NCBI GenBank assembly: GCA_965279515.1 | Contig: CBDIID010000003.1 | Coordinates: forward strand, 256,001-320,000 | DNA length: 64,000 nt | Source: Turneriella sp. | Lineage (GTDB): Bacteria; Spirochaetota; Leptospiria; Turneriellales; Turneriellaceae | Direction: 5' to 3' | In this document: positions 4,253 to 49,655 of the stretch, piece after piece | Numbering within the stretch: position 1 is the stretch's first letter | Layout of the letters: every line of letters starts with the position of its first letter | The notes under the pieces: model-generated | Seen by the model: only the letters and a program-made list of their open reading frames with translations | What the model was told of the DNA's origin: nothing | Database searches by the model: none | Translations under genes and position numbers: made by a program

Positions 4253-4936
4253 GTGGAGTATGTAGCGTTCTTATTCCTGGGTTTAGGGGTACTGCTTGTG
4301 CTTGCCGGAGTTTTGCTCCAGGTAAGGGAAAAACAGGCCGGTGCGGCCAATACTTTTGAAGATTATTTAACCAAAACCGGCTCCAGTGCGATCAAAGTCG
4401 AGCCGTTCAAGAGCATTGCGGCTGCTCCGGTATCCATGCCGCAATTGGCGACAACACCTGTGGCCGCACCTGTAGAACATTCTACTCCGGCAGCGATGGG
4501 CCACGCCGTACCAGGGCCATTCCAGTTTGTACAGGACGAACCGCCGCCGCCACCACCGCCGCCGGTTCAACCTGCGGTAGCCGTAAAGGTACAACAGAGC
4601 AATCCGCGGCTCTTCGAGAAATTCGCCTACCTCTACCTGGATTCCAGCCAGCGCAATGTCTATGACGGTGCCGGCTCGGCCGTGGCTTTTGACCTGTCTG
4701 AAGTCAGTGGCATACGGCGCTTCGGTCGTGGTGTCTTCGCCTATGACGGTTTTAGTTTTTATTTCGACCATACCAGCGGGCAGGAGCGTTTTCCGCTCAA
4801 CAATTTGAAGACCGTCGGGTTTTACCCGAACTGCGTTGCATTGACTTTCCGTACCAGCCAGCCAGTTGCTTTACTGTTCATGGAAGAAACAGAGAGCATC
4901 CGCAAAGTGCTGGAAACATTCCGCACCCCAGGCTGA
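4253..4936 (+). CDS. Hypothetical membrane-anchored protein with a Pro-rich linker
   Basis: N-terminal TM helix, poly-Pro tract, globular C-terminus; GTG start. Confidence 0.7.
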   Translation: MEYVAFLFLGLGVLLVLAGVLLQVREKQAGAANTFEDYLTKTGSSAIKVEPFKSIAAAPVSMPQLATTPVAAPVEHSTPAAMGHAVPGPFQFVQDEPPPPPPPPVQPAVAVKVQQSNPRLFEKFAYLYLDSSQRNVYDGAGSAVAFDLSEVSGIRRFGRGVFAYDGFSFYFDHTSGQERFPLNNLKTVGFYPNCVALTFRTSQPVALLFMEETESIRKVLETFRTPG

Positions 4937-7595: not shown

Positions 7596-8803
7596 CGGAG
7601 AAGCGCAGCCTCTTCGAAAGATACCGGAGCATCGGCGTTCGCGCTGATATGCCGGAGTATGAGAAGCGTTCGTATTACATATTTAATACACTGCTATTGG
7701 TCGTGCTGGCGATAACGCTGATCTACGCGTTTGTGCCGTATTTTCTGCTGCATATACAACATGTTTTGCAGAATCATATCATCAACTCAGCGCTTTTTGT
7801 CGGATACCTGTTTTGTATATTTCTTGCTAAATGGGACAAACCCCTTGCAGCCCGCCTGTTTTTTACGACACTTGTGCAGGGGCACATTTTCATTTTTACT
7901 CTGCTCATCGGCTGGGATATTGGGAACTACCTCTTCTATCTCGCTCTGCCTGCGATCCCCTTTGTGCTTTTCCATAACAGCCGGTTTGGGGTTGCCTATG
8001 CCTTCATCACGGGCCTTATCGGTTTTTCTGCGAGCTATTATATCAAAAAGACCGGTTTTCACCTGATTCGTGTTGCTCCCGAACTCTATGACGGTCTTTT
8101 TTTGATCGCATTTGTTTCGACTTTTACAGTTATTTTTATGGTGGTGAAGCTATTCTTCAAACTCTCGCGGCATTCTGAAGAACGCCTGAACCTGGAGAAA
8201 CGCCGCTCGGAGCGCCTGCTGCTCAATATCTTGCCTCAGGATATCGCCGCCCGACTGCAAAAGGGCGAAAGTACAATCGCCGATCACTACGATCCGGTGA
8301 TTGTATTGTTCGCCGACATTGTCGGTTTCACAGAAATTTCAGCGCGCACCCCGCCCGGTGAAGTCGTTCGCAAGCTCAACGAGGTTTTTTCACTGATTGA
8401 TATTCTCGTTGAAAAATATGATCTCGAAAAGATCAAAACCATCGGCGATGCCTACATGGTTGTTGCGGGAATCCCCAAGGCGCGGCCCGACGATGTGGAC
8501 CGTATCGTGCATTTCGCCAAACAGATTCTCGAAATGGTGCACACTTCGAATGCGCTGCAGCTGAGAATCGGCATTGATATCGGCGAGGTCACCGCGGGCG
8601 TCATCGGCACCAAAAAATTTATTTTCGATCTTTGGGGCGATACCGTCAACACAGCCAGCCGCATGGAAAGCCACGGTGAACCGGGCAAAATTCATGTCAC
8701 GGAACGCGTCGCTGCAAAACTCGGCCCGGATTTCAAAAAGATCGAACGCGGCAAAATGCTCGTCAAAGGTAAGGGCGAGATGAGTACATATTTCGTCGAA
8801 TAA
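7592..8803 (+). CDS. Membrane-bound class III adenylate/guanylate cyclase
   Basis: About 6 TM helices, LLLNILP, LFADIVGFT, KIKTIGDAYM, FDLWGDTVNTASRMES. Confidence 0.95.
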   Translation: MTEKRSLFERYRSIGVRADMPEYEKRSYYIFNTLLLVVLAITLIYAFVPYFLLHIQHVLQNHIINSALFVGYLFCIFLAKWDKPLAARLFFTTLVQGHIFIFTLLIGWDIGNYLFYLALPAIPFVLFHNSRFGVAYAFITGLIGFSASYYIKKTGFHLIRVAPELYDGLFLIAFVSTFTVIFMVVKLFFKLSRHSEERLNLEKRRSERLLLNILPQDIAARLQKGESTIADHYDPVIVLFADIVGFTEISARTPPGEVVRKLNEVFSLIDILVEKYDLEKIKTIGDAYMVVAGIPKARPDDVDRIVHFAKQILEMVHTSNALQLRIGIDIGEVTAGVIGTKKFIFDLWGDTVNTASRMESHGEPGKIHVTERVAAKLGPDFKKIERGKMLVKGKGEMSTYFVE

Positions 8804-8864
8804 AGTCCCTTTGGAATTTCATCGAACAGTCAGTTTTTTCCCGCGGATACAGTGCGGGCCGCAT

Positions 8865-11270
8865 TCAAAAATTCATCCCTAGACCCAGCCGCATCGTGCG
8901 CTGGATGCCCTGCTCAACAGGGTCGCGGTATGCCGTACCGACCATGACGTACTCCGCCAACTCGGTGCGGGAATTTAGCAGGTTATAGATGTCCAGAAAT
9001 GCCCAGGCAGTATTGCCGAACAGAACCGCGTCATAACGCAGCCTTAAATCCCATGCGAGAGAGTAGGTGTGGCGCCCGACGCCACTGAGGCCGCCGCCGC
9101 GCTCTTCGGTCGGCACGAGGATTGGCCCCTGCGCGAGGCCGGTCACAACCTGATAGCCCGCCATTGCCTGGCCGTCGCGGTAGCGCAAAACATTACTTAC
9201 TGTAAAGACTTTGGCAAAACGGCGGCCAAAGATAATTTTACCCAGATAACCGCGGTCGTTGTCGAGCCGGCCAAAACGGGTTTCACGGAAGTTGGGGTCG
9301 GCCGTACCTTCGTTGTAGGCCCCGGTGTCGTTATAGAAAGCATTGAGACCCTGCGGCGAATAACCCGCGCCGTAATAGCCGCCGATCGAACCCCTGAAAA
9401 TCCAGTCACCCGAAGAAGGTGCTTTCGCAATGGTGATTTCGATATGGGCGTAGTAGGCGTCCTTGTCGGAGTTCCTGAGTTCATAGAGCTCACTGCCCGT
9501 ACCGGTCTTATTATAGACTGCGACCGAACCTCCTGCAGTGCTTGAGGTAAAGGCCGGCGAGGAGCCGTCGGCATAACGCACTTCGAAGAGCTTGCGGTAG
9601 ATGCGGCCGTTAAAATTCAACTGCAGCAGCCAATGCTGCCATCCCGTATAACCGAAATTCAGATTGAGTTCTTCTTTTTGCGGCGCCTGCAGATTGCCGC
9701 CGATGCGGTGGTATTTGCCGCCCGTCTGTGTGCCCTGCGAAAGCTCGCCGGTGTCGACGACACCGTTGCCGTTCGCATCTGCCCAATTATAACGTTTGCC
9801 GCTCAGCGAATCGGAGTTCAGGTAAGAGACCTCCTGGAGCGTAAAACCCAGGGTGTCGTGGAGTACGCCGCCGCCTAGGAAAAAATTCGAGCCGCCGAGG
9901 TAGGTTTGCCCCCTGAGGTTGCCGGCAGGATGCACAAAACCGAGCTTGGTGCCGGCATCGGTAAAACCCCAGTCGATATGGCCGTTCACACCTGCCGAAA
10001 ATTCCGAGCGGGCCGATTTTTTGACGGCGCGCAAAAAGGGCTGCCAGCGCATCAGGTAATTTGCCTCAGAAGAGGCTCCGTCATAAAGCGTGGCAGCCAG
10101 TGCTGAATTGTTCAGGGTTTCTGTCAGCTGATCGGCTGGTGGCCTCTGCCTGCGGTGCTCAAATTCAACGCGCGAATTGATGCCATATTCGATCGGGATG
10201 AGATCCCAGGGGATCTTCTTAAACCCCGAACCATCGATGAACATCGTATGCACGTTATCAGGCAGGAAGGCTGGCGCCTGGTATGGCGTGTCCGTGACCG
10301 AGCGCGTGAGGGCATTGGAGTTGAGGTCGGTTTGCCGGTAGGCATAACCCCAGGCTAGCGCACCTTCCGCTTTCGGTGAAGAAAAGTTATACTGCGCGAG
10401 CAAAGAGTATTGCCCGCTTTTCAAGGTCTGCGATTCTTTAAAGAAATATTCAGCGCCCAGGTTCGTGCGCGAGCGCGCCTGCAAGGCAAAATGCAGGGAA
10501 TCATTGGGTAGCCAGCTGGGATTTAGACCAGCGAGGACTGTACCTTCACCCGCAGTTTCCGGCGTACCGAGGTTATTGAAGTTACGGCGCGCGAGGTAGC
10601 CGTCAGCGAACAGAAAGCCTGTCCGCTGGTCTTTGCCGCCCAAACTGATGAGCGCATTGCCTTCAAAGGAGCCGGCCGCAAAGCCACGCGCGGTCGTGGG
10701 CGCTCCCCAGTCGCTGGCCGGTTCACGGTCAGCCGCAGCGCGGGGAATGAAGGATGGTCCACCCAGGGGAATCGGCATAGAGAACTGCACCGAGTTTGTT
10801 GCCTCGGAAACCTTTAACGGGTTCAAATGGATGCCGTTTTTCTCTGTGTTCGCGGAAAGGTACTTTTCGGCCATCAAGCTATCTAGTATACCGATCGGTA
10901 GGTATAAGAGCGGTTCCCCTGGCTTGCCCGGGTTAGAAATGTTCGCGCCGCCGAAATACCAACGCTGCCATTTATAGGATTCACCCAGCATGGAGATCTG
11001 CACGTTTTCGGCGCGGGCAAACCCCCCGGTATCGGTATTTGCCAGCACCGCGGGCTGGAACATGAATTCCAAAAGCGAAGCCGCATGGTTGCCGTTGGGT
11101 AAATCCTTCACCTCTGCTTTAGTTAATGACCAGCTTTTTGGCAGTGCAGACCCTTCTGTAGGTGTTACAGGGGCCGATTTGTCAGGGACACCTGCCTGCG
11201 CCCGCATTGCAGTTGAGGCTGCAAACAGGCATACCAGAATTTTTGCCGAGGTAAATCCGCCTTTAGCCAT
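8865..11270 (-). CDS. Outer-membrane beta-barrel protein, TonB-dependent-receptor-like
   Basis: Signal peptide, about 800 aa of amphipathic strands, C-terminal DIYNLLN...RLGLGMNF. Confidence 0.7.
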   Translation of the reverse strand: MAKGGFTSAKILVCLFAASTAMRAQAGVPDKSAPVTPTEGSALPKSWSLTKAEVKDLPNGNHAASLLEFMFQPAVLANTDTGGFARAENVQISMLGESYKWQRWYFGGANISNPGKPGEPLLYLPIGILDSLMAEKYLSANTEKNGIHLNPLKVSEATNSVQFSMPIPLGGPSFIPRAAADREPASDWGAPTTARGFAAGSFEGNALISLGGKDQRTGFLFADGYLARRNFNNLGTPETAGEGTVLAGLNPSWLPNDSLHFALQARSRTNLGAEYFFKESQTLKSGQYSLLAQYNFSSPKAEGALAWGYAYRQTDLNSNALTRSVTDTPYQAPAFLPDNVHTMFIDGSGFKKIPWDLIPIEYGINSRVEFEHRRQRPPADQLTETLNNSALAATLYDGASSEANYLMRWQPFLRAVKKSARSEFSAGVNGHIDWGFTDAGTKLGFVHPAGNLRGQTYLGGSNFFLGGGVLHDTLGFTLQEVSYLNSDSLSGKRYNWADANGNGVVDTGELSQGTQTGGKYHRIGGNLQAPQKEELNLNFGYTGWQHWLLQLNFNGRIYRKLFEVRYADGSSPAFTSSTAGGSVAVYNKTGTGSELYELRNSDKDAYYAHIEITIAKAPSSGDWIFRGSIGGYYGAGYSPQGLNAFYNDTGAYNEGTADPNFRETRFGRLDNDRGYLGKIIFGRRFAKVFTVSNVLRYRDGQAMAGYQVVTGLAQGPILVPTEERGGGLSGVGRHTYSLAWDLRLRYDAVLFGNTAWAFLDIYNLLNSRTELAEYVMVGTAYRDPVEQGIQRTMRLGLGMNF

Positions 11271-28031: not shown

Positions 28032-29503
28032 CAGGCGCGGCTCGGCCTCCAGGTACCGTGGAAGCCGTACGGAATGCGGTGCGGCACGGCGATCTCGCAT
28101 AACGGTTTTTTATCGATGCGCGCCGCATCGTAGATGGCGAGGTATGAGCTGTTCTTTTTGCTGTCGAAGATGATGTTTAAGAGATAGCCCTTTCTCTGGC
28201 CGGGTTTTCCCGTCGGGATAAAAAGCGGTTCCCCGCCATAATGCCCAGGGGGAAATTCACTTATATCTACTCTGGCCTTACCCCTGGAGATCTCGAAAAC
28301 GGCCTGGCTGTCGAAGAGCCCTCCCGGAGTCGGGTTCCTTGCGGCACCGGCAAAGACATCCGCATACTTTTCACCCGTGAGGCGGGGATCAATCACGGGA
28401 AACTCGGCAAAATATTCGGTTGAAAGCGGCGTCTCCTCGGTTTTGCCGGTGACGAGATCGAGGCGAAAGCGTGTCAGCGTCCCGTTATTTTTCCGCTCAA
28501 AGAGCTCCGCGCGGTTTGCCGCATCATCACCCATGAGCGGCAGACTGTCGTAACGCACGGCGTCGATGAGGATAGCCTTGCCGTCTTCGTAGGCGTTTGC
28601 GTAATGATAGGCATAACACGCTTTGGGTAGGTCAAATTTCCGGATCGTCTCTTTATCACCCGCTTTGGCGATTACGTAAATGTATGCACCCTTTTCGGGC
28701 TGCCATTCGGCGATGCGGCCGCGGAAGATTGATTTCAACGAAGCCACCGCGGGGAAAACCGGTAGTACCGCATAATTGCGCGTGATGACAAAATCATGCA
28801 CCATCGCGTGGTAGGGGATGTCGATTGCCGTGCGCATCATGAGCTTACCGGAGGGATTGATGACAAAATACTCGAGTTTTGGTTCGCCACTGACACGGTA
28901 GCCGAAGGCATAGAGATAACCCGTCGCCGGATCGATTTTTGGGTGCGCCGTAAACGGCGCGATAAAGCCGGTATCGAAATTCTCAAAGCCGATTGTTTCC
29001 AGTGTCGAAGGGTTGATCTTCATCGGCGGGCTCGATTCGACCAGCGCATAGAGCTCGTCGCGGAAGGCCACGACAGAGGTATTCGATTTGGCGATCAGCT
29101 TTGTATAGACGTCGGCGTTTCGGTGTTTGATGAGCCCGCCCATTAGCGAGAAAAAACTTCCGCTGATCAGGGACAGCTGCGCCATAGGGTTAATCCCACC
29201 ACCCAAAAAGAACGTCCGTTTTGCACGCCGCTCGATCTCGAGCGTCGGCGTGATTACATAACGATTGCGATAGCTGACAGCACCGCGTTTGAAATGGAAG
29301 GAGTGCACCATGCCGTCGCCGAAAAACCAGTGGTAATTCGCACCCGGCTTCTGGGCAGAGTTAGGCCCGTTGCGGAAAAAACCGCCGTTCAAATCCTTGG
29401 GAATTTTACCGCGGACCTCGAAGTCACTGTTTTCGCTGAGCGTGAATTCCTTGTCGATCGGTGCAAAATTACCCTCGAGAAAAACATTCGAAGGCTTAGA
29501 CAT
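28031..29503 (-). CDS. Carotenoid oxygenase (RPE65/LSD) family dioxygenase
   Basis: GNFAP, RNGPN, HWFFGDGMVH, TAHPKIDP, MVHDF, HYANAYE, EFP, GEPLF and PYGFHG. Confidence 0.93.
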   Translation of the reverse strand: MSKPSNVFLEGNFAPIDKEFTLSENSDFEVRGKIPKDLNGGFFRNGPNSAQKPGANYHWFFGDGMVHSFHFKRGAVSYRNRYVITPTLEIERRAKRTFFLGGGINPMAQLSLISGSFFSLMGGLIKHRNADVYTKLIAKSNTSVVAFRDELYALVESSPPMKINPSTLETIGFENFDTGFIAPFTAHPKIDPATGYLYAFGYRVSGEPKLEYFVINPSGKLMMRTAIDIPYHAMVHDFVITRNYAVLPVFPAVASLKSIFRGRIAEWQPEKGAYIYVIAKAGDKETIRKFDLPKACYAYHYANAYEDGKAILIDAVRYDSLPLMGDDAANRAELFERKNNGTLTRFRLDLVTGKTEETPLSTEYFAEFPVIDPRLTGEKYADVFAGAARNPTPGGLFDSQAVFEISRGKARVDISEFPPGHYGGEPLFIPTGKPGQRKGYLLNIIFDSKKNSSYLAIYDAARIDKKPLCEIAVPHRIPYGFHGTWRPSRA

Positions 29504-40217: not shown

Positions 40218-41123
40218 ATGAAGATTGAGACGGCGATTACCCGTATGCTGGGCATCGATCTGCCGATCATCGGCGCGCCGATGTTCCTGGTGTCTTATCC
40301 CGACCTGGTCTGTGCCGTCTCGAATGCCGGTGGCATTGGCAGCATGCCGGCTCTCAACTATCGCACCACCGACGAGCTCAAAGCAGGTCTCACAGAGATT
40401 CGCAGCCGCACGACGAAGCCGATCGGTATCAATCTCATACTCCATAAAGAGCATAACCCGAACTGGATGAAGCAGTTCGAGATCTGCCTCGAGTTCAAAG
40501 TAGAACTCCTCATCACTTCACTGGGCAGCCCACGCACTATTATTAAGGAGGCAAAATCTGTCGGGTCAAAAGTGTTCTGCGACATCACAACGCTGAAACA
40601 TGCTAACATCGTAGCCAAGTCGGGCGCCGACGCGCTCATTGCAGTGGCGCAAGGGGCAGGGGGCCATGCCGGGGCAATCAGCCCTTTCGCCCTGATTCCG
40701 TATCTGAAAACCGAGATCCCTGAAGTGCCTGTCGTGGCCGCCGGCGCCATTTCAACGGGCAAACAGATGGCAGCCGCCCTTGCCCTGGGCGCCGACGCCG
40801 TCTATGTCGGCACCCGGCTCATCGCCACCCCCGAGGCCCAGGCCTATGCGGAGTACAAACAGATGCTGATCGATTCAGCACCTGAAGAAATCATCTATTC
40901 GCCGAAGATCTCGGGAATTCCCGCGAACTGGCTGAAACGCTCGCTCGACAAACTCGATCCCGACTTCAAACCGGATACCGGGCTTTCGGTCGAAGCCAAG
41001 TCATGGAAAGAAGTCTGGTCTGCGGGCCACGGTGTTGCGCAGATTACGAGCGTTGAACCTGCTGAAGAAGTGATCCGTTCTATGGCGATCCAGTATTTAG
41101 ATACGAAGAAGAATTTACCCTAA
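40218..41123 (+). CDS. Nitronate monooxygenase-family flavoprotein
   Basis: PIIGAPMFLVS, GAGGHAG, AAGAI, YVGTRLIAT and WSAGHGV. Confidence 0.9.
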   Translation: MKIETAITRMLGIDLPIIGAPMFLVSYPDLVCAVSNAGGIGSMPALNYRTTDELKAGLTEIRSRTTKPIGINLILHKEHNPNWMKQFEICLEFKVELLITSLGSPRTIIKEAKSVGSKVFCDITTLKHANIVAKSGADALIAVAQGAGGHAGAISPFALIPYLKTEIPEVPVVAAGAISTGKQMAAALALGADAVYVGTRLIATPEAQAYAEYKQMLIDSAPEEIIYSPKISGIPANWLKRSLDKLDPDFKPDTGLSVEAKSWKEVWSAGHGVAQITSVEPAEEVIRSMAIQYLDTKKNLP

Positions 41124-41968
41124 TGCCACTCGACCAGGAATTCGAAGATAAATCGGCCAAGGCTGCGAATGCCGGCATAAAACAGCTGCGCGAGGACCAG
41201 GGCTATATGCCCATGAGTGCCCACCTCGGCGAACTCAGAAAGCGCCTGATGCGTGCGGCGTTATGGATAGTGGCGTTTTCAACGGCAAGTTACTTCTTTT
41301 ATAATTTGGTTTGGACCTTCATCATGGGGCCAGTCGCTGAACTCATCCGCAAATCAAGGCTGCCCGATATGCCCTCGGTCAAAATCATGACCACGCGCCT
41401 CGGCGACAACTTTGCCATTGAGTTCAAGATACTGCTGCTGGCAGGGTTCATCCTCGCATTTCCATTTATCATCTTCGAGATCTGGCGTTTTATCACGCCG
41501 GCGCTGTCAGCAGGCATCCGCCGCTGGGGCAGTATTATTCTTTTGTCGTCGGTAGCCTTGTTCTGGTGCGGGGTGCTTTTCGCGCGGCTCGTGACCTGGG
41601 GTACCGTGGCGGATTTCCTCGTGTTCCAATGGCTACCGCCGCCGATTGTACTGTCGGCCACCGAGAGCGTCAGGCCCGAGATTAACCTGACGATTGCGGA
41701 TTACCTTTCTTTCTTTACGGGTTTTCACCTCGCGTTCGGCCTGAGCTTTCAGCTGCCGATCGTTTCGGTACTGTTGGGGTCGATTGGTGTGATCTCGAGC
41801 GGCCTGTTTTTGCGATTCTGGCGCCATGCCATTGTTGCGCTCTGCCTGTTTTCTATCGTTGTGATGCCGCCCGATGTCTTTGCCATGCTTACGCTGATGG
41901 TGCCGATGATGGGGTTATATTTTCTCTCAGCGTTTCTGGTCTGGCTCATTGAGCGGCGTAAAGAATAG
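41123..41968 (+). CDS. tatC: Twin-arginine translocase subunit TatC
   Basis: HLGELRKRL, WRFITPAL, FGLSFQLP and MPPDVF. Confidence 0.92.
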   Translation: MPLDQEFEDKSAKAANAGIKQLREDQGYMPMSAHLGELRKRLMRAALWIVAFSTASYFFYNLVWTFIMGPVAELIRKSRLPDMPSVKIMTTRLGDNFAIEFKILLLAGFILAFPFIIFEIWRFITPALSAGIRRWGSIILLSSVALFWCGVLFARLVTWGTVADFLVFQWLPPPIVLSATESVRPEINLTIADYLSFFTGFHLAFGLSFQLPIVSVLLGSIGVISSGLFLRFWRHAIVALCLFSIVVMPPDVFAMLTLMVPMMGLYFLSAFLVWLIERRKE

Positions 41969-42006
41969 CCCGTGCTGTTCATTGGGCTTTCCGGGCATAT
42001 TTCATG

Positions 42007-42034
42007 ATGTGACATAAGATACCCTATATGTTGT
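42007..42034. other. attL: dif-like junction (one canonical arm, one degenerate arm)
   Basis: ATGTGACATAA-GATACC-CTATATGTTGT; shares GACATAAGATACC (42011-42023) with 48407-48419. Confidence 0.8.
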
Positions 42035-42038
42035 AGTT

Positions 42039-42362
42039 ATGTCGCCAAGGCATGTAGAGCGCGCACCGTATTTCCGGGATCGTACAAACCGGCAATATTA
42101 TCGTCGGCCGGGGGAATCCGGGAACGGTTTTTTCTCCCGATTTATGCGGGATACGTTGCGCCTAGACAGTTTTGAGGCACGTCGTCAAGGTCGGCGGCCG
42201 TATGGTGGGAAAAGTGTTCAGTACGTAGGGTGGCTTGACTGGTGCCGCCTTACTAGGTCGGTACATCCGAACGACTGGCGCCGAGTAAAGCAATATGGCT
42301 TCCGTGCCCCTGATGGCAATATCTACAAACTACGAAATCGCTATGGCGTGGTACGGCGTTGA
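42039..42362 (+). CDS. Prophage Arg-rich hypothetical protein (start uncertain)
   Basis: First ORF inside the element; very basic. Confidence 0.45.
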   Translation: MSPRHVERAPYFRDRTNRQYYRRPGESGNGFFSRFMRDTLRLDSFEARRQGRRPYGGKSVQYVGWLDWCRLTRSVHPNDWRRVKQYGFRAPDGNIYKLRNRYGVVRR

Positions 42363-42363
42363 A

Positions 42364-42513
42364 ATGCAACGTTGGGGCGGGGGTAGCTGGATTACGATCA
42401 GCGTGCTCGCCGAGAATGCGGGGCACGCCTGTATGAAGGCTGAGCGCCGAAGGCCGGGCTACATAGCGATGTCAGTAGAGCGTGGAAATACTTATAAAAG
42501 GCGGTTTCGATGA
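42364..42513 (+). CDS. Prophage small hypothetical protein (49 aa)
   Basis: ATG 1 nt after the previous stop; ATGA overlap with the next ORF. Confidence 0.5.
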   Translation: MQRWGGGSWITISVLAENAGHACMKAERRRPGYIAMSVERGNTYKRRFR

Positions 42514-42755
42514 AAATAATGGAAGATGAGACAGGTACTGGTGTGACCATTATCATGGATCAAAGTAAAAAGTCTGATACTCTTTTTTATGCGATGGGAA
42601 TATCCCTCGTGATAAAAGGTGCGCTGGCTGATGGATTTACGCAGGTTTTTGTGAATACAAAACCTGACCGGGAAGGTAACGACCGTGTGTTGTTGTCATT
42701 CCGGAAACCTTCGCCGCGTCCCGAAGGGGAACAGCGGGGGGAACAGCATGGCTAA
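42510..42755 (+). CDS. Prophage hypothetical protein (81 aa)
   Basis: Translationally coupled at both ends. Confidence 0.65.
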   Translation: MKIMEDETGTGVTIIMDQSKKSDTLFYAMGISLVIKGALADGFTQVFVNTKPDREGNDRVLLSFRKPSPRPEGEQRGEQHG

Positions 42756-42966
42756 TTTTTGTATTTATGTCAGTACGTCCGAGGGCAAACGAATTGTTCG
42801 CGGTACTGCGCTGACTGTGCCTGAATTTATGGAAAAAGTTCAGGCCCGATTTACACCTGAGAAGATTCGCAGCGAAGGTGTTTATGAAGAAATGGATCTT
42901 GATGAGACCCCGGCGATTCATGCCGGTGTGACAACACGCAAGATTCGTGCGAAGAAAGTGGATTAG
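42748..42966 (+). CDS. Prophage hypothetical protein (72 aa, MANFCIY...)
   Basis: G-rich RBS before ATG 42748; overlaps the previous stop. Confidence 0.65.
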   Translation: MANFCIYVSTSEGKRIVRGTALTVPEFMEKVQARFTPEKIRSEGVYEEMDLDETPAIHAGVTTRKIRAKKVD

Positions 42967-42989
42967 GCGGAAGGAAAAGGGAAAATGAA

Positions 42990-43217
42990 ATGGCTTGGTA
43001 CGGGAAAAGATATGGTGGTTATCGACCGCGCAAGAGGTTTGTCGTGAGACGCTTTTTTGGCGGTCGTCGGCGTCGGGGTGGTGGGTCACCCATGGCGAAG
43101 CGTCGCGCGTTTTTTTGGGGTGGCATCCTGATGATTTTCATCATGATGTGTGCCCCAAATGTTCGCGCATGGATCGTTGCGAAGTTCTCGCAGTGGTTCC
43201 CCAGCTGGAGGGCATGA
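42990..43217 (+). CDS. Prophage Arg/Gly-rich protein with a TM helix (candidate genome-binding membrane protein)
   Basis: KRYGGYRPRKRFVVRRFFGGRRRRGGG followed by hydrophobic FFWGGILMIFIMMCA. Confidence 0.7.
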   Translation: MAWYGKRYGGYRPRKRFVVRRFFGGRRRRGGGSPMAKRRAFFWGGILMIFIMMCAPNVRAWIVAKFSQWFPSWRA

Positions 43218-43218
43218 G

Positions 43219-43920
43219 ATGTATCAGTATAATCGGGAACTGAATGCGGTTGCGATGGCCGCTGGTCAATATCAGTTTGATGTTGAAAAGCAGCTTGTTT
43301 CTAAAATTGCCATTGGTCTGCGTTCCACTGGATCACCTCCGGTAACGCCGACTGTGGCTCAGCTGAAGGCAACTTTTTTCGTTGCTCGCCATATTGCTCC
43401 CGGGGTCGACCGCGAGCTGTATAATATTAGCCTTTATGATCTGGCTATGCTTACAGACGAAAAAGGTGGTTATTCACGTGATTGGACGGATACGGATTTA
43501 TCGGACACGAATATTGTGGCACCGTTTGGACTTGATCTTCGTCAGGAAGGAAAAATCCAGTGCTATATCAGTGTTCCGGCCACGATCGCTAACTGCGCTA
43601 TATCTGCCTACCCTGTGTACGATGGCCAAATGCCTACAACGCTTGCGTACCGTACGCAGACGACGTCTGGAAGCTGTTCTATCAGTAATTGCTTCCGGTT
43701 GTACTCGCGGGACGAGTCGGGTACTGAGCTTGACCTCAAGGTGGGGGATTTCTCTAAGAAAGCCATTGACTTTCTTATGGGAAAGATCCTTTTCAGTGAG
43801 CAGGCCAAGATCGAGAACGAAACGCCGTTCGCGCTGCTTTATTCGAGTCCATCACCGTATTTGGTGAAGCTCGACCGTATGGCGGGCAGTTGCACGTTTG
43901 TTTCTGTGGAGCTTCCATAA
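43219..43920 (+). CDS. Candidate major capsid protein (double-jelly-roll-like, 233 aa)
   Basis: RBS GGAGG; beta-rich, no TM segment; strand-strand-helix pattern (ELYNISLYDLAML) reminiscent of PM2-type MCPs. The fold assignment is inference. Confidence 0.55.
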   Translation: MYQYNRELNAVAMAAGQYQFDVEKQLVSKIAIGLRSTGSPPVTPTVAQLKATFFVARHIAPGVDRELYNISLYDLAMLTDEKGGYSRDWTDTDLSDTNIVAPFGLDLRQEGKIQCYISVPATIANCAISAYPVYDGQMPTTLAYRTQTTSGSCSISNCFRLYSRDESGTELDLKVGDFSKKAIDFLMGKILFSEQAKIENETPFALLYSSPSPYLVKLDRMAGSCTFVSVELP

Positions 43921-44579
43921 TGTTGATGCCGGGCGGTAGTGAGGGGCCGAATTCTGATGTTATTATTCGTGATTTTTACGAAGATCAGAAAACGGCGTTA
44001 AGAGCTACCGCTCGGAATCGTGCGGACGCTGACCGGAAGGTTCGGGAATATGAAGAATTCATAGAGGCTAGGCGTTCCACGCTGGAGTCCGCCCAGGTCG
44101 CGCAGTGGGAGAGGGAAAAGCAAGAAAGAGAAGCAAAGAATAAAGCCGCGTCTGGGGAATCTTTCATATCCAACGCGGGTGGCCTTCTTGGAAAACTCTG
44201 GGATGGCATTGTGGGTAATTATACCGGTGGTGCCCTTTCTTCAGATAGCCTGAAGAAATACGGCAAGAATGCGGTTGGGGTGTCGGATTTCGATGCTCCG
44301 AAGGTTGATATCCCGAATTTCGATTTTGAAGGTTTCAAAGCGAAATCGGCGGCCGCATCCAAAGCAGCTGCTAACGCGGAACTCAGGGCTGCGGGCGGTG
44401 GTACGGCCAATTATGGGTCAGGGGCTATTGCCATGACGAAAGAGGTTAAGGAATTTTCAGATTCGTTTACGAACGGTATCGACAAGAGTCGTATCGGATA
44501 TACGTTGCCGAATTTGAGCCTTCCTGATTTTGATTTTATGGGTGGAGCTCAGCAAGTGAGGGATTTTTATGAACTTTAG
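43920..44579 (+). CDS. Prophage coiled-coil and Ala/Gly-rich protein (DNA-pilot/tape-like candidate)
   Basis: TAATG coupling; charged coiled coil, then amphipathic GGLLGKLWDGIVG. Confidence 0.65.
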   Translation: MLMPGGSEGPNSDVIIRDFYEDQKTALRATARNRADADRKVREYEEFIEARRSTLESAQVAQWEREKQEREAKNKAASGESFISNAGGLLGKLWDGIVGNYTGGALSSDSLKKYGKNAVGVSDFDAPKVDIPNFDFEGFKAKSAAASKAAANAELRAAGGGTANYGSGAIAMTKEVKEFSDSFTNGIDKSRIGYTLPNLSLPDFDFMGGAQQVRDFYEL

Positions 44580-44826
44580 TATGGGCAGTTTGAATTCGCT
44601 TCTTTCGGGAGCGAGCGAGATATCAGGATCGTTCGGTGGGCCGACGATACCTGGGGCTACGCCGCCGCCTCCGCCGCCACCAGCGGTGCAGGCTGTTACG
44701 CCGCGTGATTCGGGCGCCGACTTTGGCGCGGGTACTTATGCCGCTGGTGCGGGCGTATCATTGGTTGCGTTGTATCTTGGATACAAGGCTCTGCGGTATT
44801 TCGGTGTTATTCCGAAGGTAATATGA
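44569..44826 (+). CDS. Prophage small membrane protein with a poly-Pro linker
   Basis: Run of 7 Pro, C-terminal TM AGAGVSLVALYLGY and a basic tail. Confidence 0.7.
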   Translation: MNFSMGSLNSLLSGASEISGSFGGPTIPGATPPPPPPPAVQAVTPRDSGADFGAGTYAAGAGVSLVALYLGYKALRYFGVIPKVI

Positions 44827-44957
44827 TCCGCAAAATACTTGCTGGGATTTTGAGGTTCATTCACAATGAAGCGTTGTTGCTTAAGCTGGCTGATTATTTG
44901 GAACAGCCTTCTTTGGATGAATCCGTGGGGCAGCCTGATGGCCAAGAAGCTTCTTAA
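44823..44957 (+). CDS. Prophage small protein (44 aa, MIRKILAGILRF...)
   Basis: ATGA-coupled ORF that fills the gap before the peptidase; amphipathic N-terminus. Confidence 0.55.
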   Translation: MIRKILAGILRFIHNEALLLKLADYLEQPSLDESVGQPDGQEAS

Positions 44958-45579
44958 GAACGTTGAGGCCCCGGCTGGCCTTCGGGATATTATTCTGGAG
45001 GAGTATGAAGCTTACAAAGCTTATCGGGGCGCCGGTGCGCCTGATCAATTATTTAGTACTTTTGCCGCTTCGTCTGGAACTGGCGTTCCCTCTCATGATG
45101 CTGGTAAAGCTATTGATATTGTTACTGACGGTTACGATAGCCGCCCTTATCTTTTTGAATTTGGGATTTGGCTATTTGTTAAAAGACCGGACCTGAGCGT
45201 TTACTTCTATTCGATGCAGTATGAACCGCATGTTCATATTGGGCAGGTTTCTGGGTTTGGAAAGGGATCTTACCTAGCCGTGAACAAAGGTGCAAAGGGT
45301 AAGTTCGATATTTATCCGCGTGCCCAGGTCGCCGGCAAAGCTTCGGATATAATCGGAAAGCTGAAAGCGGCGCGGGAAACTTATCCTGCGGGTGTAAATG
45401 TGGATTGGCCTACCTATCAGGCCATGCTTGAGGGGAAGGTCCCTGTAGGGACGAGTAATTGGAAACAGTATTTGAAAAAATACTGGTGGGTTGGATTATT
45501 GAGCTTTTTGGCTCTTGGAATCGGTTTTTTTATTTGGAGATCTAGGAATCAGGAGGAAACTGAAGATGGAATTGCATGA
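44938..45579 (+). CDS. Membrane-anchored M15/LAS-type zinc peptidase (candidate peptidoglycan hydrolase)
   Basis: SHDAGKAID (HX6D) and PHVHIG (HXH) motifs; C-terminal TM WWVGLLSFLALGIGFFIW. Confidence 0.75.
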   Translation: MAKKLLKNVEAPAGLRDIILEEYEAYKAYRGAGAPDQLFSTFAASSGTGVPSHDAGKAIDIVTDGYDSRPYLFEFGIWLFVKRPDLSVYFYSMQYEPHVHIGQVSGFGKGSYLAVNKGAKGKFDIYPRAQVAGKASDIIGKLKAARETYPAGVNVDWPTYQAMLEGKVPVGTSNWKQYLKKYWWVGLLSFLALGIGFFIWRSRNQEETEDGIA

Positions 45580-45664
45580 TGTAGGTTTAAACGAGTTGCT
45601 TCTCGTAGTGTTTAACCTGATCACCACAGTGATCGCGTATTTTCGTGGTAAAAAATCTAACTGA
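45566..45664 (+). CDS. Prophage 32-aa single-TM protein (MELHDVGLNELLLVVFNLITTVIAYFRGKKSN)
   Basis: Strong RBS AGGAGG at 45551-45556; TGATG coupling to the next gene. Confidence 0.65.
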   Translation: MELHDVGLNELLLVVFNLITTVIAYFRGKKSN

Positions 45665-46140
45665 TGAAGTGGGTTTGGACCGCGTTGATTGGCCTTGTTG
45701 GCTGGTTAATTTATGATTGGCTCCGGGATAAACCCGGGGCTGTTTCCAACTCGGTGCAGGATTCTGCAGACATGATGGGGGCCGTGGCAGACGGTATCAT
45801 TGAAAAGCAGAATGCAAAGAAGCCGAAGAAATGGATTTGGCTTTTGCTTGGCTCTGTCCCTGTTATCGGGACGGGTCTTTTTTTCCTATTCAGAAAAAAG
45901 AAGCCTATGAGTAATCTGTTTAATTTGGGTTATTTGGGTCAGAAGGCTCCGGCAGGATCGGAATTTGATTCTCGATACTTAGCAGGATGCGCGAAGGCAC
46001 GGCGGGAGAGTTTGAAGATGGATTTCGCTAAGACTCAGGGCGCAACGGTCGCCGGCTTACCGATAGAGAGTGTGATGGCCACTTTTGGCAAGAAGAAGGT
46101 GTACGATGAAGGTAATTTCAGAAAAGCTCAGCGGTACTAG
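45664..46140 (+). CDS. Prophage membrane protein with two TM segments
   Basis: WVWTALIGLVGWLIY and WIWLLLGSVPVIGTGLFFLF, each flanked by basic residues. Confidence 0.7.
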   Translation: MKWVWTALIGLVGWLIYDWLRDKPGAVSNSVQDSADMMGAVADGIIEKQNAKKPKKWIWLLLGSVPVIGTGLFFLFRKKKPMSNLFNLGYLGQKAPAGSEFDSRYLAGCAKARRESLKMDFAKTQGATVAGLPIESVMATFGKKKVYDEGNFRKAQRY

Positions 46141-46573
46141 AAGCTTCCGTGGCTTGGGCTTTGTTGAGATAAATGGGATTCAGTATCCCGTTTGTGGTTC
46201 TCGACAGTTTGAATGTGGTAGAAAGGCGACGGTGCGGTACGTCGATGAGCAGATAGAAATGTTGGAAGTGTTGGAACCGACAATGCTCGCAGTTTTTCCC
46301 GGGAGCTTAGAGGGGTTCCCTATTGCAACGAACGGTAGAGTTTTTGTCACGGTGGACAAGAAATATTCTCTTTATAGGGGACTGCTCGAAGGCATATGTT
46401 TGGGCGGTATTTCGGACGGTGCATCGACGATATCTGTCGTACCGCCGCTTTTTTTGAACTCACGTTATATATATGGCGCCGGAAGGATCGATCAGTGGAA
46501 CCCGGATTTCCCTGTATGGGATTCAAGCTTTGATTTGGCCTGGGATTTTGACGCTGTATCGATGCGTCAATGA
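46106..46573 (+). CDS. Prophage beta-rich protein (candidate penton/minor capsid)
   Basis: Start MKVIS; no TM segment; ATGA-coupled to the next gene. Confidence 0.6.
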   Translation: MKVISEKLSGTRSFRGLGFVEINGIQYPVCGSRQFECGRKATVRYVDEQIEMLEVLEPTMLAVFPGSLEGFPIATNGRVFVTVDKKYSLYRGLLEGICLGGISDGASTISVVPPLFLNSRYIYGAGRIDQWNPDFPVWDSSFDLAWDFDAVSMRQ

Positions 46574-47265
46574 TCGTTGGCAATCGATCATTGATACTGC
46601 CGGTTTCGGAGGCCGGTTGGGATAGGCTTTGGTCCCCGCCTGTTCGCAATTTCTCTTATCCGGATTCACGTGCTGGATTAATTCAAGGTTGCGTTGGGGA
46701 CGTGCCGGCGAAATCCGATATTACGCCGTATCTTGCGGGGAATGTATGGAATTCTGTCCAGATTTTAAGGTATAATCCGCCCACGAGTGTAGCGCTGACG
46801 CATGAGTATGGCAATACGTTCACGGGATCGGCGTGGACGCACGACGGTGATTTTCGTGACATGGCAGGCGCTGCGATATTTCCGGCTCCGCTGAATAATT
46901 ATCAGCGGGCGTTTGGCACGTTTGCAAATATTGGTATAGATCCGGATGAATCCGGAAAACCAGCCGCGAATTCGTTTAGTTATTTAATAAAATACAATCT
47001 TCAACGCGGTGGGTTCGTGCAAGTGTACGAGTTTGAAGAAGGGGCAGACGGCATCGTCTCCGTATCTATTCAAGGTGGTGTTGCTTCAGCCGTTAAGGCA
47101 CTTCGGATTTCCGATGGTTCATGGCAGGTTATCTCAGAAGGTGGAATGCTGCTGCCGGCGGGTGGTGGCCAGTTTTGGTTAAACGCCTCGTGGACGTCCG
47201 GTGTCGCGGCTACGCAAATGATTGCGCGACTGCGGTTTAGCGTAGAGGTTCCGTATGGCTTATGA
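46570..47265 (+). CDS. Prophage beta-rich protein (candidate spike/receptor-binding)
   Basis: 231 aa, rich in Gly/Ser and aromatics; overlaps the rep start. Confidence 0.65.
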   Translation: MIVGNRSLILPVSEAGWDRLWSPPVRNFSYPDSRAGLIQGCVGDVPAKSDITPYLAGNVWNSVQILRYNPPTSVALTHEYGNTFTGSAWTHDGDFRDMAGAAIFPAPLNNYQRAFGTFANIGIDPDESGKPAANSFSYLIKYNLQRGGFVQVYEFEEGADGIVSVSIQGGVASAVKALRISDGSWQVISEGGMLLPAGGGQFWLNASWTSGVAATQMIARLRFSVEVPYGL

Positions 47266-48010
47266 TTTGGCCGACGAGGCCGAGTCCTATTATTTCGATC
47301 AGTCTTTGAGCCCGGTGGTTTTGGATTATCCAAACGGCCGGGAAGTCTATTTTGAGGCAGCTCGAAAAAAAGAAGTCTTTGGTGGGGGGAAACGTGGAAA
47401 AGTCTTTTCAATGTCCGCTGCGGCGGTCAGAAGGTTCCGGCAGGCGCTTCGGCGAAGTGGTGCGAAATTTTCGCATTTCGTTACAGTCACTTTTCCGCCT
47501 GAGGTTCTTGGGATCGATGAGGATTGGCCCAGGTATGTCCGTAAGTTTTGGCAAAAACTTGCCGCCGAATGTCGCAAGAGGGATATTACGTATTTGTGGG
47601 TACGCGAGCCGCACAAAAGCGGACAACCACATTATCACATTATATGTACGAAAGGGCCGTTATTTCGGTTACTTGCGAATCGCATCATATCGGAGGGGAC
47701 AACCCGGGAGCGTGGACGACTTAACCTCCGGGTGGGTGTTCTGTGCAAAGCAATCTATCACGAAGGCGGTGCTGCGCGCTATATGTCAAAACTCGCCGGC
47801 TATTGCAGCAAGGAATCGCAGGTATTGCACGAGGAATCGTATCGTCATTGGGGCCGAAACTACGATGACGAGCTCCCAGACATCTACGAAGCAACTGCCG
47901 CTGTTTGCGACTGGGTAAGAAGCCAATATGATCGGCTGTATGCTTTTAAATTTCCGCGATTACTGCAGGTGCCGCGGGGTCTCCCCGTGGGGCCGGCGCT
48001 TTACTTTTAG
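47255..48010 (+). CDS. rep: HUH-superfamily rolling-circle replication initiator
   Basis: Motif I FVTVTF, YLWVRE...PHYHII (motif II HUH), motif III YMSKLAGYCSK. Confidence 0.88.
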   Translation: MAYDLADEAESYYFDQSLSPVVLDYPNGREVYFEAARKKEVFGGGKRGKVFSMSAAAVRRFRQALRRSGAKFSHFVTVTFPPEVLGIDEDWPRYVRKFWQKLAAECRKRDITYLWVREPHKSGQPHYHIICTKGPLFRLLANRIISEGTTRERGRLNLRVGVLCKAIYHEGGAARYMSKLAGYCSKESQVLHEESYRHWGRNYDDELPDIYEATAAVCDWVRSQYDRLYAFKFPRLLQVPRGLPVGPALYF

Positions 48011-48402
48011 CGCGCCGCACAATAATCCCCCTGGCTGAACAAGCAGGCCGGAGGCCGCACGTTTACGCGGCGAAAAGTGCCGTCTGCAGACGGATGTCTG
48101 CTTGCACGTCAAAAATCGTCGATCTCGATTTTGTTACAGGGCTATGCGTAGCCCTTTTTGCGTTTTGCTGCAGCAAAACGCGGGGGGTCCGGGGGGGCGA
48201 TAGCCCCGCCCGGGGGCGAAGCCCTTGGTTATAGACACATATTGAAGTTGACCTACTGAAAACATTGGGTTTTCTTGTCTTATGGGAATAGCAGAAGCAA
48301 TATTCATAATTGGTATCTGGGTTGGATCGAACGGAATCGTGTTTTGCGTCGCTGCGGAACTCTCCGGCAACTCGTTTTGTGTGTTTTAACAAAAAAAAGT
48401 TG
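48011..48402. other. Prophage non-coding region, candidate origins and terminator
   Basis: Hairpins at 48086-48101, 48138-48155 (plus T-run), a 22-bp palindrome at 48160-48181, 48194-48207 and 48214-48224. Confidence 0.6.
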
Positions 48403-48430
48403 ACGAGACATAAGATACCTTATGGGAAGT
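48403..48430. other. attR: intact-looking dif-like XerCD site
   Basis: ACGAGACATAA-GATACC-TTATGGGAAGT has the 11-6-11 architecture with the CATAA/TTATG inverted core. Confidence 0.82.
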
Positions 48431-48453: not shown

Positions 48454-49590
48454 TCAGGGCGCTTGATTAACCGGTATCGCTTTAATCTGATAAGCGAAAT
48501 AAATGAAAAATAATATGTTTATCGGTACCTGTACATACGCCTTACACCAGTCTTGATTATAGATTAGCGTGACCAGAGAAAACAGTACTAGCACTGCTAA
48601 GTTCGGCCAACTGCTCTTTTGAAATTTCAAACGGCTGAGCATAAAGAAAAATACCGGAATCAGAAGAAATGCCCAATAAGGCCAGACTATTGGCGTGAGA
48701 ATACCCGAAATTCCCAGGCCATACGCATATCCTTCAAGCTTCTGCGTTCTTTTTATGCTCAGAAATAAAAGCCCTGCGGCGGCGGCGGTCATGAACCAAA
48801 AGATAAAGGCCAGACGTTGACTGAAGCCAAGATGCAGCAACCAACCGATCAGCGATTCGTTGTCCCGATGTCCCAACAGCCCTTCAGAAGATTTAGTCAG
48901 GCTCTTTAACCATGCGCCATTTTCAACGGTTGAGAATTCCCAGCCGGAATAAAGCGCGGTAACGCCGTAACTAATGATAATTAGCCAGACCGGAATCAGC
49001 AACAACCCTAGCCAGCGCCTTTGGATCAGAAATATCGGTGCGATAAAAAGAAAATGCAATTTGAATAAGATTGCCAACGCAAGGCAAAGCGCGGCGAGAA
49101 CCTGGGAAAATCGGGTTTCCGCGTTCAATAGTACATATGTCCCAAGGGAAAGAATAAGCGGCAGACCATTAATTTGCCCTAGCCTAAGTTCATCCCGAAT
49201 ACTTACAATAAAGACCAATGAAGTTATGATTTTTCCCTGGAATTCTGAAATTGTGCCATCAAATGAAAAATATTTCGGCAAAGCAAAAAATATCAGCCAA
49301 ATCCAGGCGGCCGTAAAAAGAAAATAGAAAATCCAAGGCCGCGCTTCCTTAGGGCAAGGAGTAATAATCGCACCAAAAAACAGCGCCACGGAAGGCGAAT
49401 ATTTGAATTGATAGTGATTTTCCACATCGAAAACCGTTTTGTGATTTATTGCTTTGGCCCCGGCCTCTTCGTATACCCTAAAATCGTCGAAAACCGGCTT
49501 GGAATTTAAAAACATGGTAAATACATACACCAAAACGAGGCCAGAAAGAATAAGAAATCTCCGTTGCTTGCTAAGAACCATATTGCCCAT
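48454..49590 (-). CDS. GT87/DUF2029-like membrane glycosyltransferase
   Basis: DFRVY, FKYSP, GQIN, ILFKL and NESL; multi-TM. Confidence 0.82.
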   Translation of the reverse strand: MGNMVLSKQRRFLILSGLVLVYVFTMFLNSKPVFDDFRVYEEAGAKAINHKTVFDVENHYQFKYSPSVALFFGAIITPCPKEARPWIFYFLFTAAWIWLIFFALPKYFSFDGTISEFQGKIITSLVFIVSIRDELRLGQINGLPLILSLGTYVLLNAETRFSQVLAALCLALAILFKLHFLFIAPIFLIQRRWLGLLLIPVWLIIISYGVTALYSGWEFSTVENGAWLKSLTKSSEGLLGHRDNESLIGWLLHLGFSQRLAFIFWFMTAAAAGLLFLSIKRTQKLEGYAYGLGISGILTPIVWPYWAFLLIPVFFFMLSRLKFQKSSWPNLAVLVLFSLVTLIYNQDWCKAYVQVPINILFFIYFAYQIKAIPVNQAP

Positions 49591-49655
49591 TCATTTTATC
49601 CCTTTCAAGAACATTTGCCGTCGAAGTTAGAAGGTAAAGTATATTTCGGGGGATT

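Follow-up and report, generated by a model that had tools for sequence, protein, structure and literature searches.

What kind of element fills 6.4 kb of a spirochaete chromosome with small, co-oriented genes and a replication initiator, and carries no recognisable integrase or packaging ATPase? The question is raised by a 64,000-nt stretch of a Turneriella sp. genome (GenBank assembly GCA_965279515.1, contig CBDIID010000003.1, positions 256,001 to 320,000; hereafter the window), in which an earlier note had placed a small, possibly membrane-containing single-stranded DNA (ssDNA) prophage of an undescribed group. The region is probably an intact-looking, temperate and tailless prophage, with a predicted double-jelly-roll capsid and a way of working like that of phage phiCjT23, and it appears to belong to a rare spirochaete lineage of ~6.4-kb genomes that is separate from the Flavobacterium phages.

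The element and its boundaries

Two copies of a 13-bp direct repeat, GACATAAGATACC (42011-42023 and 48407-48419), bound a unit of 6,396 nt; neither a third copy in the window at ≤2 mismatches nor another exact copy in the 4.9-Mb genome was found. The unit contains 15 annotated open reading frames (ORFs), all on the + strand and overlapping at 11 of 14 junctions, the longest being those for the replication protein Rep (251 amino acids, aa) and for the capsid protein (233 aa from an ATG start, or 256 aa from an upstream GTG). Third-position T (T3) stands at 0.331, compared with 0.218 +/- 0.044 across 2,394 long host frames, 1.8% of which reach the prophage value, and none of 4,835 equal-sized chromosome windows has a GC skew as high as its +0.184. 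Hydrophobic segments above threshold occur in five ORFs (ORF4, 9, 10, 11 and 15), with ORF7 borderline. The Walker A pattern [GA]x4GK[ST] is absent from all six frames, and integrase and ATPase families gave no match (ORF1-14 against Pfam and PHROGs, ORF1-15 against NCBIfam). In these respects the earlier note had described the locus correctly: the bounding repeat, some 15 co-oriented and mostly overlapping ORFs, the bias towards T-ending codons, the five transmembrane proteins and the lack of Walker A and integrase signatures were all recovered.

Nor is the region conserved core of related strains, an outcome that the same note had set against its own reading. Among 20 family genomes its DNA matches its own alone (E 0.01; none of the other 19), a capsid homologue occurs in one of those 19, and in the source genome the capsid and the Rep have a single match apiece. 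No CRISPR spacer against the prophage was seen, the 19 other family genomes being without a DNA match at E 0.01. An excised-circle or empty-site joint was found in none of four runs possibly derived from the source DNA (contigs, depth 4-9, one study), which is no evidence either way.

Capsid protein

ORF5 (43219..43920, + strand) encodes a 233-aa protein that is not recognised in sequence searches of Pfam, PHROGs, NCBIfam or PDB; because the gene is invisible to the first three, such prophages are probably undercounted. Homologues came from a set of 147 candidates (seven) and from a profile search (13), and an alignment of 17 sequences was used for folding, with P0015 (2,397 aa, 20 stretches) and the 84-aa piece P0013 left out of alignment A2. 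The AlphaFold2 model scored highly (predicted local distance difference test, pLDDT, 91.6; predicted template-modelling score, pTM, 0.89). The first four PDB rows of a Foldseek search with this model were the capsids of Sulfolobus turreted icosahedral virus (STIV), PM2, FLiP and phiCjT23 (E 5e-12 to 2e-10), and structural alignment against 48,161 chains gave Z scores of 16.2 for phiCjT23 (root-mean-square deviation 3.3, 211 residues), 16.1 for STIV, 14.4 for both FLiP and PRD1 and 13.4 for PM2. On the strength of the model we can say confidently that this ORF has a double-jelly-roll capsid fold, here in a minimal form. The lack of any predicted capsid fold was among the outcomes that the earlier note had set against its reading, and ORF5 removes it. 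FLiP and phiCjT23 had been proposed from the outset as the phages to compare with, and they are the right choice.

At the level of sequence the protein stands alone. Comparison with phiCjT23 P5 gave an hhalign probability of 0.2% (E 0.36) and a profile E of 0.46, and the closest predicted viral model was A0A345N5C7, an unnamed 246-aa entry with a TM-score of 0.75. The ESM Atlas placed the capsid, at 0.96, with a cluster 17-18% of whose members have PM2 P2_N/P2_C; this is a lead only, recognition having been low. A capsid tree says nothing on origin, because its branches are long and unsure and no known virus is included.

The same comparison bears on whether the element might instead be an integrated rolling-circle plasmid, with the beta-rich ORF encoding a cellular double-jelly-roll enzyme and not a capsid. 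Cellular proteins of this fold do score at Z ~11, but five viral capsids rank higher (Z 13.4-16.2), and the neighbours of the gene are small membrane proteins, a probable wall hydrolase and a spike-like ORF, arranged much as in phiCjT23; we consider the plasmid explanation highly improbable.

Integration at dif

How would such an element enter the chromosome? The 13-bp repeat is no generic target duplication. A 28-bp dif site is present at both ends (42007-42034 and 48403-48430), and the repeat comprises its 6-bp core and seven bases of its left arm; the earlier note had missed this XerC/D-dif mechanism. The dif pattern is found in 13 of 14 genus genomes, with no matches for a reversed control, and joining the two host halves yields the site that is intact in several relatives. 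The cumulative GC skew, computed with the prophage removed, peaks at 304.8 kb, less than 7 kb from the dif site at 298.0 kb, a match that is approximate because the curve is flat over ~210-310 kb and a ribosomal RNA (rRNA) operon lies nearby. The octamer GGGCAGGG, which we take to be the KOPS motif, is polarised 220:51. The XerD of the host passes the NCBIfam cut-off; another full-length recombinase fits XerC better, at a score below the threshold.

The two ends are hybrid. attL (42007..42034, + strand) joins the host left (XerC-type) arm and the 6-bp core to a degenerate phage right arm, agreeing with the genus dif at 11/11, 6/6 and 6/11 positions, respectively. attR (48403..48430, + strand) consists of a phage left arm, the core and the host right (XerD-type) arm (9/11, 6/6 and 11/11), so that a near-canonical dif is restored; the arms are named by analogy with E. 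coli dif. The prophage was most likely integrated through host XerC/D, whose use would explain the missing integrase. In lacking an integrase, mimicking dif and regenerating a working dif at one end, it resembles the integrative mobile elements exploiting Xer (IMEX) CTXphi, VGJphi and TLCphi, which are filamentous phages or their satellites. Judged by its sequence it would count among the IMEX, having no integrase, hybrid att ends at the chromosomal dif (a placement repeated in G010 and G450) and a host with XerD and a XerC-like recombinase.

It differs from those elements in how the attachment site might be recombined. An inverted 7-bp copy of the left arm (42037..42043, - strand) would allow fold-back on attP, and the hairpin is not significant (z -1.3, + strand); a folded single-stranded attP of the CTXphi type, with a corresponding z of 0.05 in the related prophage of genus genome G010 described below, is unsupported. 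PF12375 (DUF3653), presumably the XafT domain, is absent from the host genome. Because the folded attP is unsupported and no DUF3653/XafT was found in the genome, recombination of a double-stranded circle is the simpler reading.

The junction may also carry regulatory information. A possible -35 box, TTGACG, follows an A-tract at 48400..48405 (+ strand) and points across attP, and a possible -10 box, TATGTT (42027..42032, + strand), is aligned with it in the excised circle only; both assignments are speculative. The pair scores 9/12 at 17-nt spacing in the rebuilt attP, 7/12 in attR and 8/12 in the G010 phage. Sites satisfying this strict rule occur in the host at 0.08 per kb per strand and nowhere else on the phage + strand, and a looser scan returned other 9/12 sites inside genes. 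Integration at dif could split the -35 from the -10 of the main promoter, so that no repressor would be needed, a reading that we hold doubtful because of the 8/12 score in G010 and the other 9/12 sites within genes.

The surroundings of dif vary among relatives. In the window the site is inverted relative to tatC (41123-42034), the end of tatC adjoining the left arm, while it adjoins the right (XerD-type) arm in nine relatives that have tatC close by (L005, L006, L010-L013, L015, L016 and L036); the window prophage and that of G010 both read away from tatC, despite the inversion in the window. On the 38-kb contig C1 of genome G000, two identical dif-like sites with chromosomal arms and a different core (4774-4801 and 28249-28276) lie 23,475 nt apart, a distance at which the contig forms no clean tandem repeat (54% identity). 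G007, G013, G014 and G019 also have a second site of this kind (L018-L021), in several cases beside genes matching C1, and all are probably plasmid dif sites. A conserved motif resembling GTAAACTATGTG is found ~45 nt before the left arm of several chromosomal and plasmid dif sites (L007, L010, L011, L012, L018, L019, L020 and L021) and is absent in the window; it is possibly an accessory-protein site. Lone perfect 11-nt left arms, next to which the core is unrelated and the right arm poor (G000:C3:3164833 and L025:2839), are possibly Xer or regulator binding sites.

Rep and candidate origin

The penultimate gene (47255..48010, + strand) encodes the HUH rolling-circle Rep that the earlier note had recognised. 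The 251-aa protein has HYH at residues 126-128 and tyrosines Y176 and Y183, seven apart, and matches PF23343 REP_ORF2-G2P (E 1.4e-11) and the PHROG rolling-circle Rep (E 8e-7). The HYH and two-tyrosine motifs are invariant in all five aligned Reps and are kept in G010 and at locus L033, while the Rep of a more distant prophage, in genome G450, has Y-x3-Y spacing instead.

A conserved 24-nt motif (48222..48245, + strand), ~210 nt behind rep, is common to the window, L004 and L033, whose DNA around it does not align, and no further copy in the host genome comes closer than four mismatches. It is a candidate Rep nick site (double-strand origin), and we take it to resemble the rolling-circle nick sites of phiX174 and pC194. 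The motif was not found in the G450 prophage, and a scan gave no matches in viral contigs and one in genome contigs (L038), which is not counted as independent because its length and match position are those of L004. A terminator-like hairpin after rep (48138..48155, + strand) came from a consensus scan only and is one among several G+C-rich hairpins.

Relatives and distribution

Homologues of the capsid are rare, being found in two of 190 class genomes and two of 401 genomes in a sample of the phylum (the source genome and G450). The earlier note had suggested a search for syntenic elements, and one with the same gene order was found in G010, the sole genome of the 14 in the genus without an intact dif. 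Its capsid, Rep and ORF9 peptidase are 35%, 33% and 34% identical, respectively, to those in the window, and it also shows the G+T and T3 bias. Its attR and attL are on separate contigs, attL lying next to tatC as in the window. Relative to dif this prophage points the other way, its left-type arm being degenerate and its right-type arm good.

G450, a closed genome from outside the class, has one exact dif match, where 22-bp repeats bound a unit of 6,412 nt. This unit encodes an HUH Rep, an ORF9 homologue and, ahead of the gene for a 238-aa capsid protein, an Arg-rich ORF. Its genes are shuffled, the capsid module coming last before attR; different candidate spike-region ORFs lie at reverse-strand positions 8088-9004 (L050). 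Walker A was absent from six frames of all three prophages (window, G010 and G450).

Beyond these genomes, a 92% identical capsid protein is on record from a Turneriella sp. genome. Among the 38 capsid homologues listed, the longest contig is 5.9-6.9 kb for 12 and >10 kb for four. Homologues on longer contigs, P0030 (145 kb), P0041 (12.5 kb), and P0055 and P0063 (9,075 nt), are likely to be additional prophages and could extend the host range. Scans for related loci with capsid queries gave nothing in viral, genome or metagenome contigs, and a Rep query gave nothing in viral contigs; in metagenomes it recovered three loci from 112 stretches, of which L033 alone is full length (the others being L034 and L035). 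Homologues of the phage ORFs were absent from seven other dif-bearing regions (G009, G011, G012, G013, G014, G017 and G019), and G172 gave a weak Rep-like match (E 6e-4) with five stops. Three queries against 50,697 phage records, the presence of phi18:4 and Omtje among them being unchecked, produced no true capsid match; the single one returned from the phage collection (MT838694, E 1) was rejected as a bacterial fragment.

Gene content and comparison with phiCjT23

phiCjT23 is an ssDNA phage with an inner membrane and no annotated ATPase, and dif-flanked prophages of its kind occur in Flavobacterium (PMC9719478). The window prophage shares with it (PMC9719478; ON067806) a minimal double-jelly-roll capsid (233 versus 239 aa), the lack of an integrase and of an ATPase among annotated genes, a rolling-circle Rep, dif-flanked integration and a comparable length (6.4 kb versus 6.0-8.4 kb for phiCjT23-like prophages). 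The likeness extends to the run of slots after the capsid gene, in which a helical protein and small amphipathic or transmembrane ORFs are followed by a wall hydrolase with a C-terminal anchor, then by a 32-35-aa transmembrane ORF, a 160-170-aa membrane protein and a spike.

Upstream of the capsid gene, ORF1 (42295..42513, + strand, as are all those below; 72 aa) is a doubtful gene with a T3 of 0.21, no clear ribosome-binding site and no family. ORF2 (42510..42755, 81 aa) has no significant family and is a candidate regulator or replication accessory, and ORF3 (42748..42966) encodes a soluble 72-aa protein without family assignment in Pfam, PHROGs or NCBIfam. ORF4 (42990..43217, 75 aa), directly before the capsid gene, combines an Arg-rich N-terminus (24% lysine plus arginine) with a transmembrane helix. 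This architecture and slot are repeated in G010 (95 aa, 26%), and an Arg-rich ORF also precedes the G450 capsid gene, making ORF4 a candidate genome-condensing membrane protein.

Downstream, ORF6 (43920..44579, 219 aa) is helical and Ala/Gly-rich, has a weak PHROG tape-measure match (E 0.002) and occupies the same slot as phiCjT23 gp6; it is a candidate internal or DNA-delivery protein. ORF7 (44569..44826, 85 aa), with a Pro-rich linker and a hydrophobic C-terminus, is a candidate minor membrane protein whose G010 counterpart has a transmembrane segment, and the amphipathic ORF8 (44823..44957, 44 aa) is 70% identical over 27 aa to its G010 counterpart. ORF9 (44938..45579, 213 aa) has a C-terminal membrane anchor and an H-x6-D ... 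H-x-H motif, a pattern that we take to be that of M15/LAS zinc peptidases; H53, D60, H98 and H100 are invariant in all three members (19-35% identity). From this motif ORF9 is a probable zinc peptidase and candidate cell-wall-cutting enzyme, so that of the earlier peptidase call the conserved motif stands and profile support is lacking. ORF10 (45566..45664, 32 aa) is a single transmembrane helix of the size and slot of phiCjT23 gp11, and ORF11 (45664..46140, 158 aa) is a membrane protein whose G010 counterpart has two transmembrane segments.

The last genes before rep may contribute to the vertices. ORF12 (46106..46573, ~155 aa), the N-terminal 54 aa of which are 50% identical to the G010 counterpart, is a candidate vertex or penton part. 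ORF13 (46570..47265, 231 aa) is beta-rich, lies in the slot of the phiCjT23 spike gp13, gave an Atlas lead (0.75) to microvirus spike G and is a candidate spike or receptor-binding protein. After rep, the hydrophobic ORF15 (48282..48389, 35 aa) occupies a variable slot next to attR. In L004 and L033 this slot holds small lipoprotein-like genes whose products align with one another at 33% over 49 aa (E 1e-5), and superinfection exclusion is a candidate function.

Against these parallels stand clear differences from phiCjT23. There is no sequence link, one chance-level BLAST match among all ORFs aside. Rep is of the HUH type (PF23343) and is encoded after the spike gene, whereas phiCjT23 gp3 is a Rep_trans protein (PF02486 E 2.9e-5, under cut-off). 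The probable zinc peptidase takes the place of a PHROG 873-type, glycosidase-type endolysin, the membrane-anchored gp10 (PHROG endolysin E 4e-39), and the host is a spirochaete and not Flavobacterium. The prophage is placed outside the phiCjT23-like group because its capsid sequence, Rep type and host all differ from those of the members, and the missing sequence link, the HUH Rep, the probable zinc peptidase and the spirochaete hosts appear to be what is new here. The architecture, dif integration included, is already published for phiCjT23-like prophages; the lineage looks new and the kind does not, and the former is the part of the claim to an undescribed group that survives.

Other known systems

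FLiP (Finnlakeviridae, PMC7654751) is likewise comparable in its double-jelly-roll capsid, co-oriented genes, rolling-circle Rep, lytic enzyme and lack of a packaging ATPase. It differs in its 9.2-kb genome, virulent and Flavobacterium-specific habit, capsid chain of ~310 aa (11% identity) and lytic transglycosylase. Candidatus Obscuriviridae (Cellulophaga phi18:4; PMC11946311) invite comparison by a 6.5-kb ssDNA genome with 13 co-oriented genes, a chloroform-sensitive virion and a virion-borne wall hydrolase; their hosts are Bacteroidota and their initiators are BLAST matches of the phiCjT23 Rep (PMC9719478).

Among double-stranded DNA (dsDNA) phages, the Vibrio dif-type PM2-like prophages (PMC12715192) share the double-jelly-roll capsid, dif integration by host XerC/D and a one-armed attP. 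They and Corticoviridae have dsDNA, an FtsK-HerA packaging ATPase and terminal P15/XafT and P16/RstR; neither the ATPase nor the two terminal genes were found here. The Odin group, which we compare by its description in PMC5894146, is similar in its small genome, STIV/PM2-like double-jelly-roll capsid, lack of an ATPase and small protein before the capsid gene. It comes from marine-sediment contigs, PolB, ParB and nucleases but not an HUH Rep appear in the map legend, and the small pre-capsid protein here is Arg-rich with a transmembrane helix.

Two further groups are of another kind: the Charybdis elements (10.1101/2025.08.03.668216) and the Sulfurimonas double-jelly-roll phages (PMC11531552), which carry an ATPase. 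The text passages of PMC5894146 and its two supplementary files contain no spirochaete term. Among the results listed, no paper on double-jelly-roll phages of spirochaetes was found in a search that left most subscription literature outside its scope and took in supplements of PMC5894146 only, and an unnamed listing is possible.

The two classical families of small ssDNA phages could be set aside, as the earlier note had done. Inoviridae are excluded by the lack of a pI/Zot morphogenesis ATPase in Pfam, PHROGs and the Walker A scan. Microviridae, whose capsid protein F is a single jelly roll of >400 aa, are excluded by a longest ORF of 251-256 aa and by the predicted double-jelly-roll capsid.

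Proposed life cycle and alternatives

Taken together, these features are consistent with the following life cycle. A double-stranded circle carrying a dif mimic, with a good left arm, an identical core and a degenerate right arm, would be recombined into dif by host XerC/D, leaving a working dif at attR. After excision, Rep would nick the coding strand at the conserved motif downstream of its own gene, and this G+T-rich strand would be released by rolling-circle replication as a 6.4-kb circle. In place of a motor, the Arg-rich ORF4 and other small membrane proteins may gather the genome and host lipid; capsid trimers would then close around them as an icosahedral shell, with a membrane inside and probably ssDNA, as proposed for phiCjT23 (PMC9719478). 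ORF12 and ORF13 would form the vertex spikes, and the membrane-anchored ORF9 may cut peptidoglycan at entry, exit or both.

Several points weigh against this reading, some of which would favour a virion containing circular dsDNA. In that alternative the same prophage and capsid would package DNA without a motor, in an Odin- or PM2-like manner, by assembly around a supercoiled circle. The ssDNA genome and inner membrane are read from strand bias and from five to six membrane ORFs, and the G450 member lacks that bias, with a strand skew of -0.013 and T3 close to that of its host. The capsid is about equally close to STIV (Z 16.1) and to phiCjT23 (Z 16.2). Some dsDNA phages of the PM2 group, moreover, carry a rolling-circle Rep of the HUH type, and the ATPase-less Odin group is discussed in terms of small dsDNA viruses (PMC5894146). 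Set against this, FLiP and phiCjT23, the two double-jelly-roll phages with solved structures for which no ATPase is reported, both have ssDNA (PMC7654751, PMC9719478), and all genes lie on one strand with a strong G+T and T3 bias here and in G010. A dsDNA virion is therefore unlikely in our assessment, if a shade less so than our other alternatives.

The remaining difficulties concern individual functions. ORF9 gained no profile support (PF08291 and PDB profile searches, general family scans), and the ORF13 model is poor (pLDDT 46), with a generic C-terminal beta-sandwich at Z up to 7.4. No repressor family was found among the small ORFs in Pfam, PHROGs or NCBIfam, and no XafT-like activator in the host genome. 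The lack of a repressor, excisionase and XafT, together with the degenerate arm in attL, might indicate a satellite or defective element, either needing a helper for an ATPase, a XafT-like factor or a lysis function, or unable to excise. Yet all frames are open, three prophages share core gene types and ~6.4 kb, the genome holds no second capsid or Rep of this type, and unit-length contigs with capsid and Rep homologues recur: five contig sizes (6,378, 6,394, 6,396, 6,476 and 9,754) from a capsid cluster reappear in the cluster of the 61%-identical Rep, which suggests unit-length free genomes. We regard a satellite or defective element as improbable, and an intact-looking temperate phage of the phiCjT23 way of life is still the reading that we favour.

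Whether that way of life was reached independently is a separate matter. The prophages may form a family-level group of ~6.4-kb ssDNA, membrane-containing spirochaete phages that arrived at it apart from phiCjT23 and FLiP, a proposal to which we give slightly less than an even chance. Such an origin would pair a double-jelly-roll capsid of 230-241 aa with an HUH Rep and not Rep_trans, and this too we put forward tentatively, a little below the balance. Such a capsid would be shorter than any in a 2026 structural comparison, in which phiCjT23 supplied the shortest protein (PMC13552765).

Flanking regions

To the right of attR, positions 48454-55139 of the window have a lower GC content (0.44-0.51) and contain a GT87 glycosyltransferase and AraC-like and outer-membrane-like ORFs; the AraC-like gene adjoins dif in G009. 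At ~55200-61100, on the - strand, inspection of sequence and frames indicates an rRNA operon, ~7 kb from dif and followed by genes that are presumably hrcA- and grpE-like. An rRNA operon at the terminus is unusual. Skew at 56-62 kb was considered as a possible second phage and rejected, the region being the rRNA operon by inspection.

Significance

The ssDNA double-jelly-roll phages FLiP and phiCjT23 infect Bacteroidota, and the lipid-containing Cellulophaga phages are related in kind (PMC7654751, PMC9719478, PMC11946311). Phages of the FLiP/phiCjT23 type are used in the debate on the origin of this capsid lineage and its switch between ssDNA and dsDNA. A second lineage, with another Rep superfamily, a smaller capsid and genome and spirochaete hosts, would test single against repeated origin of motor-less ssDNA packaging, and, if the origin was indeed independent, would form a link between motor-less ssDNA viruses and the PM2-like dsDNA phages with rolling-circle replication. 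The prophage also offers a minimal capsid for structural work, and it points to Xer-dependent integration in spirochaetes, for which genetic tools are few (for Leptospira, see PMC8705779).

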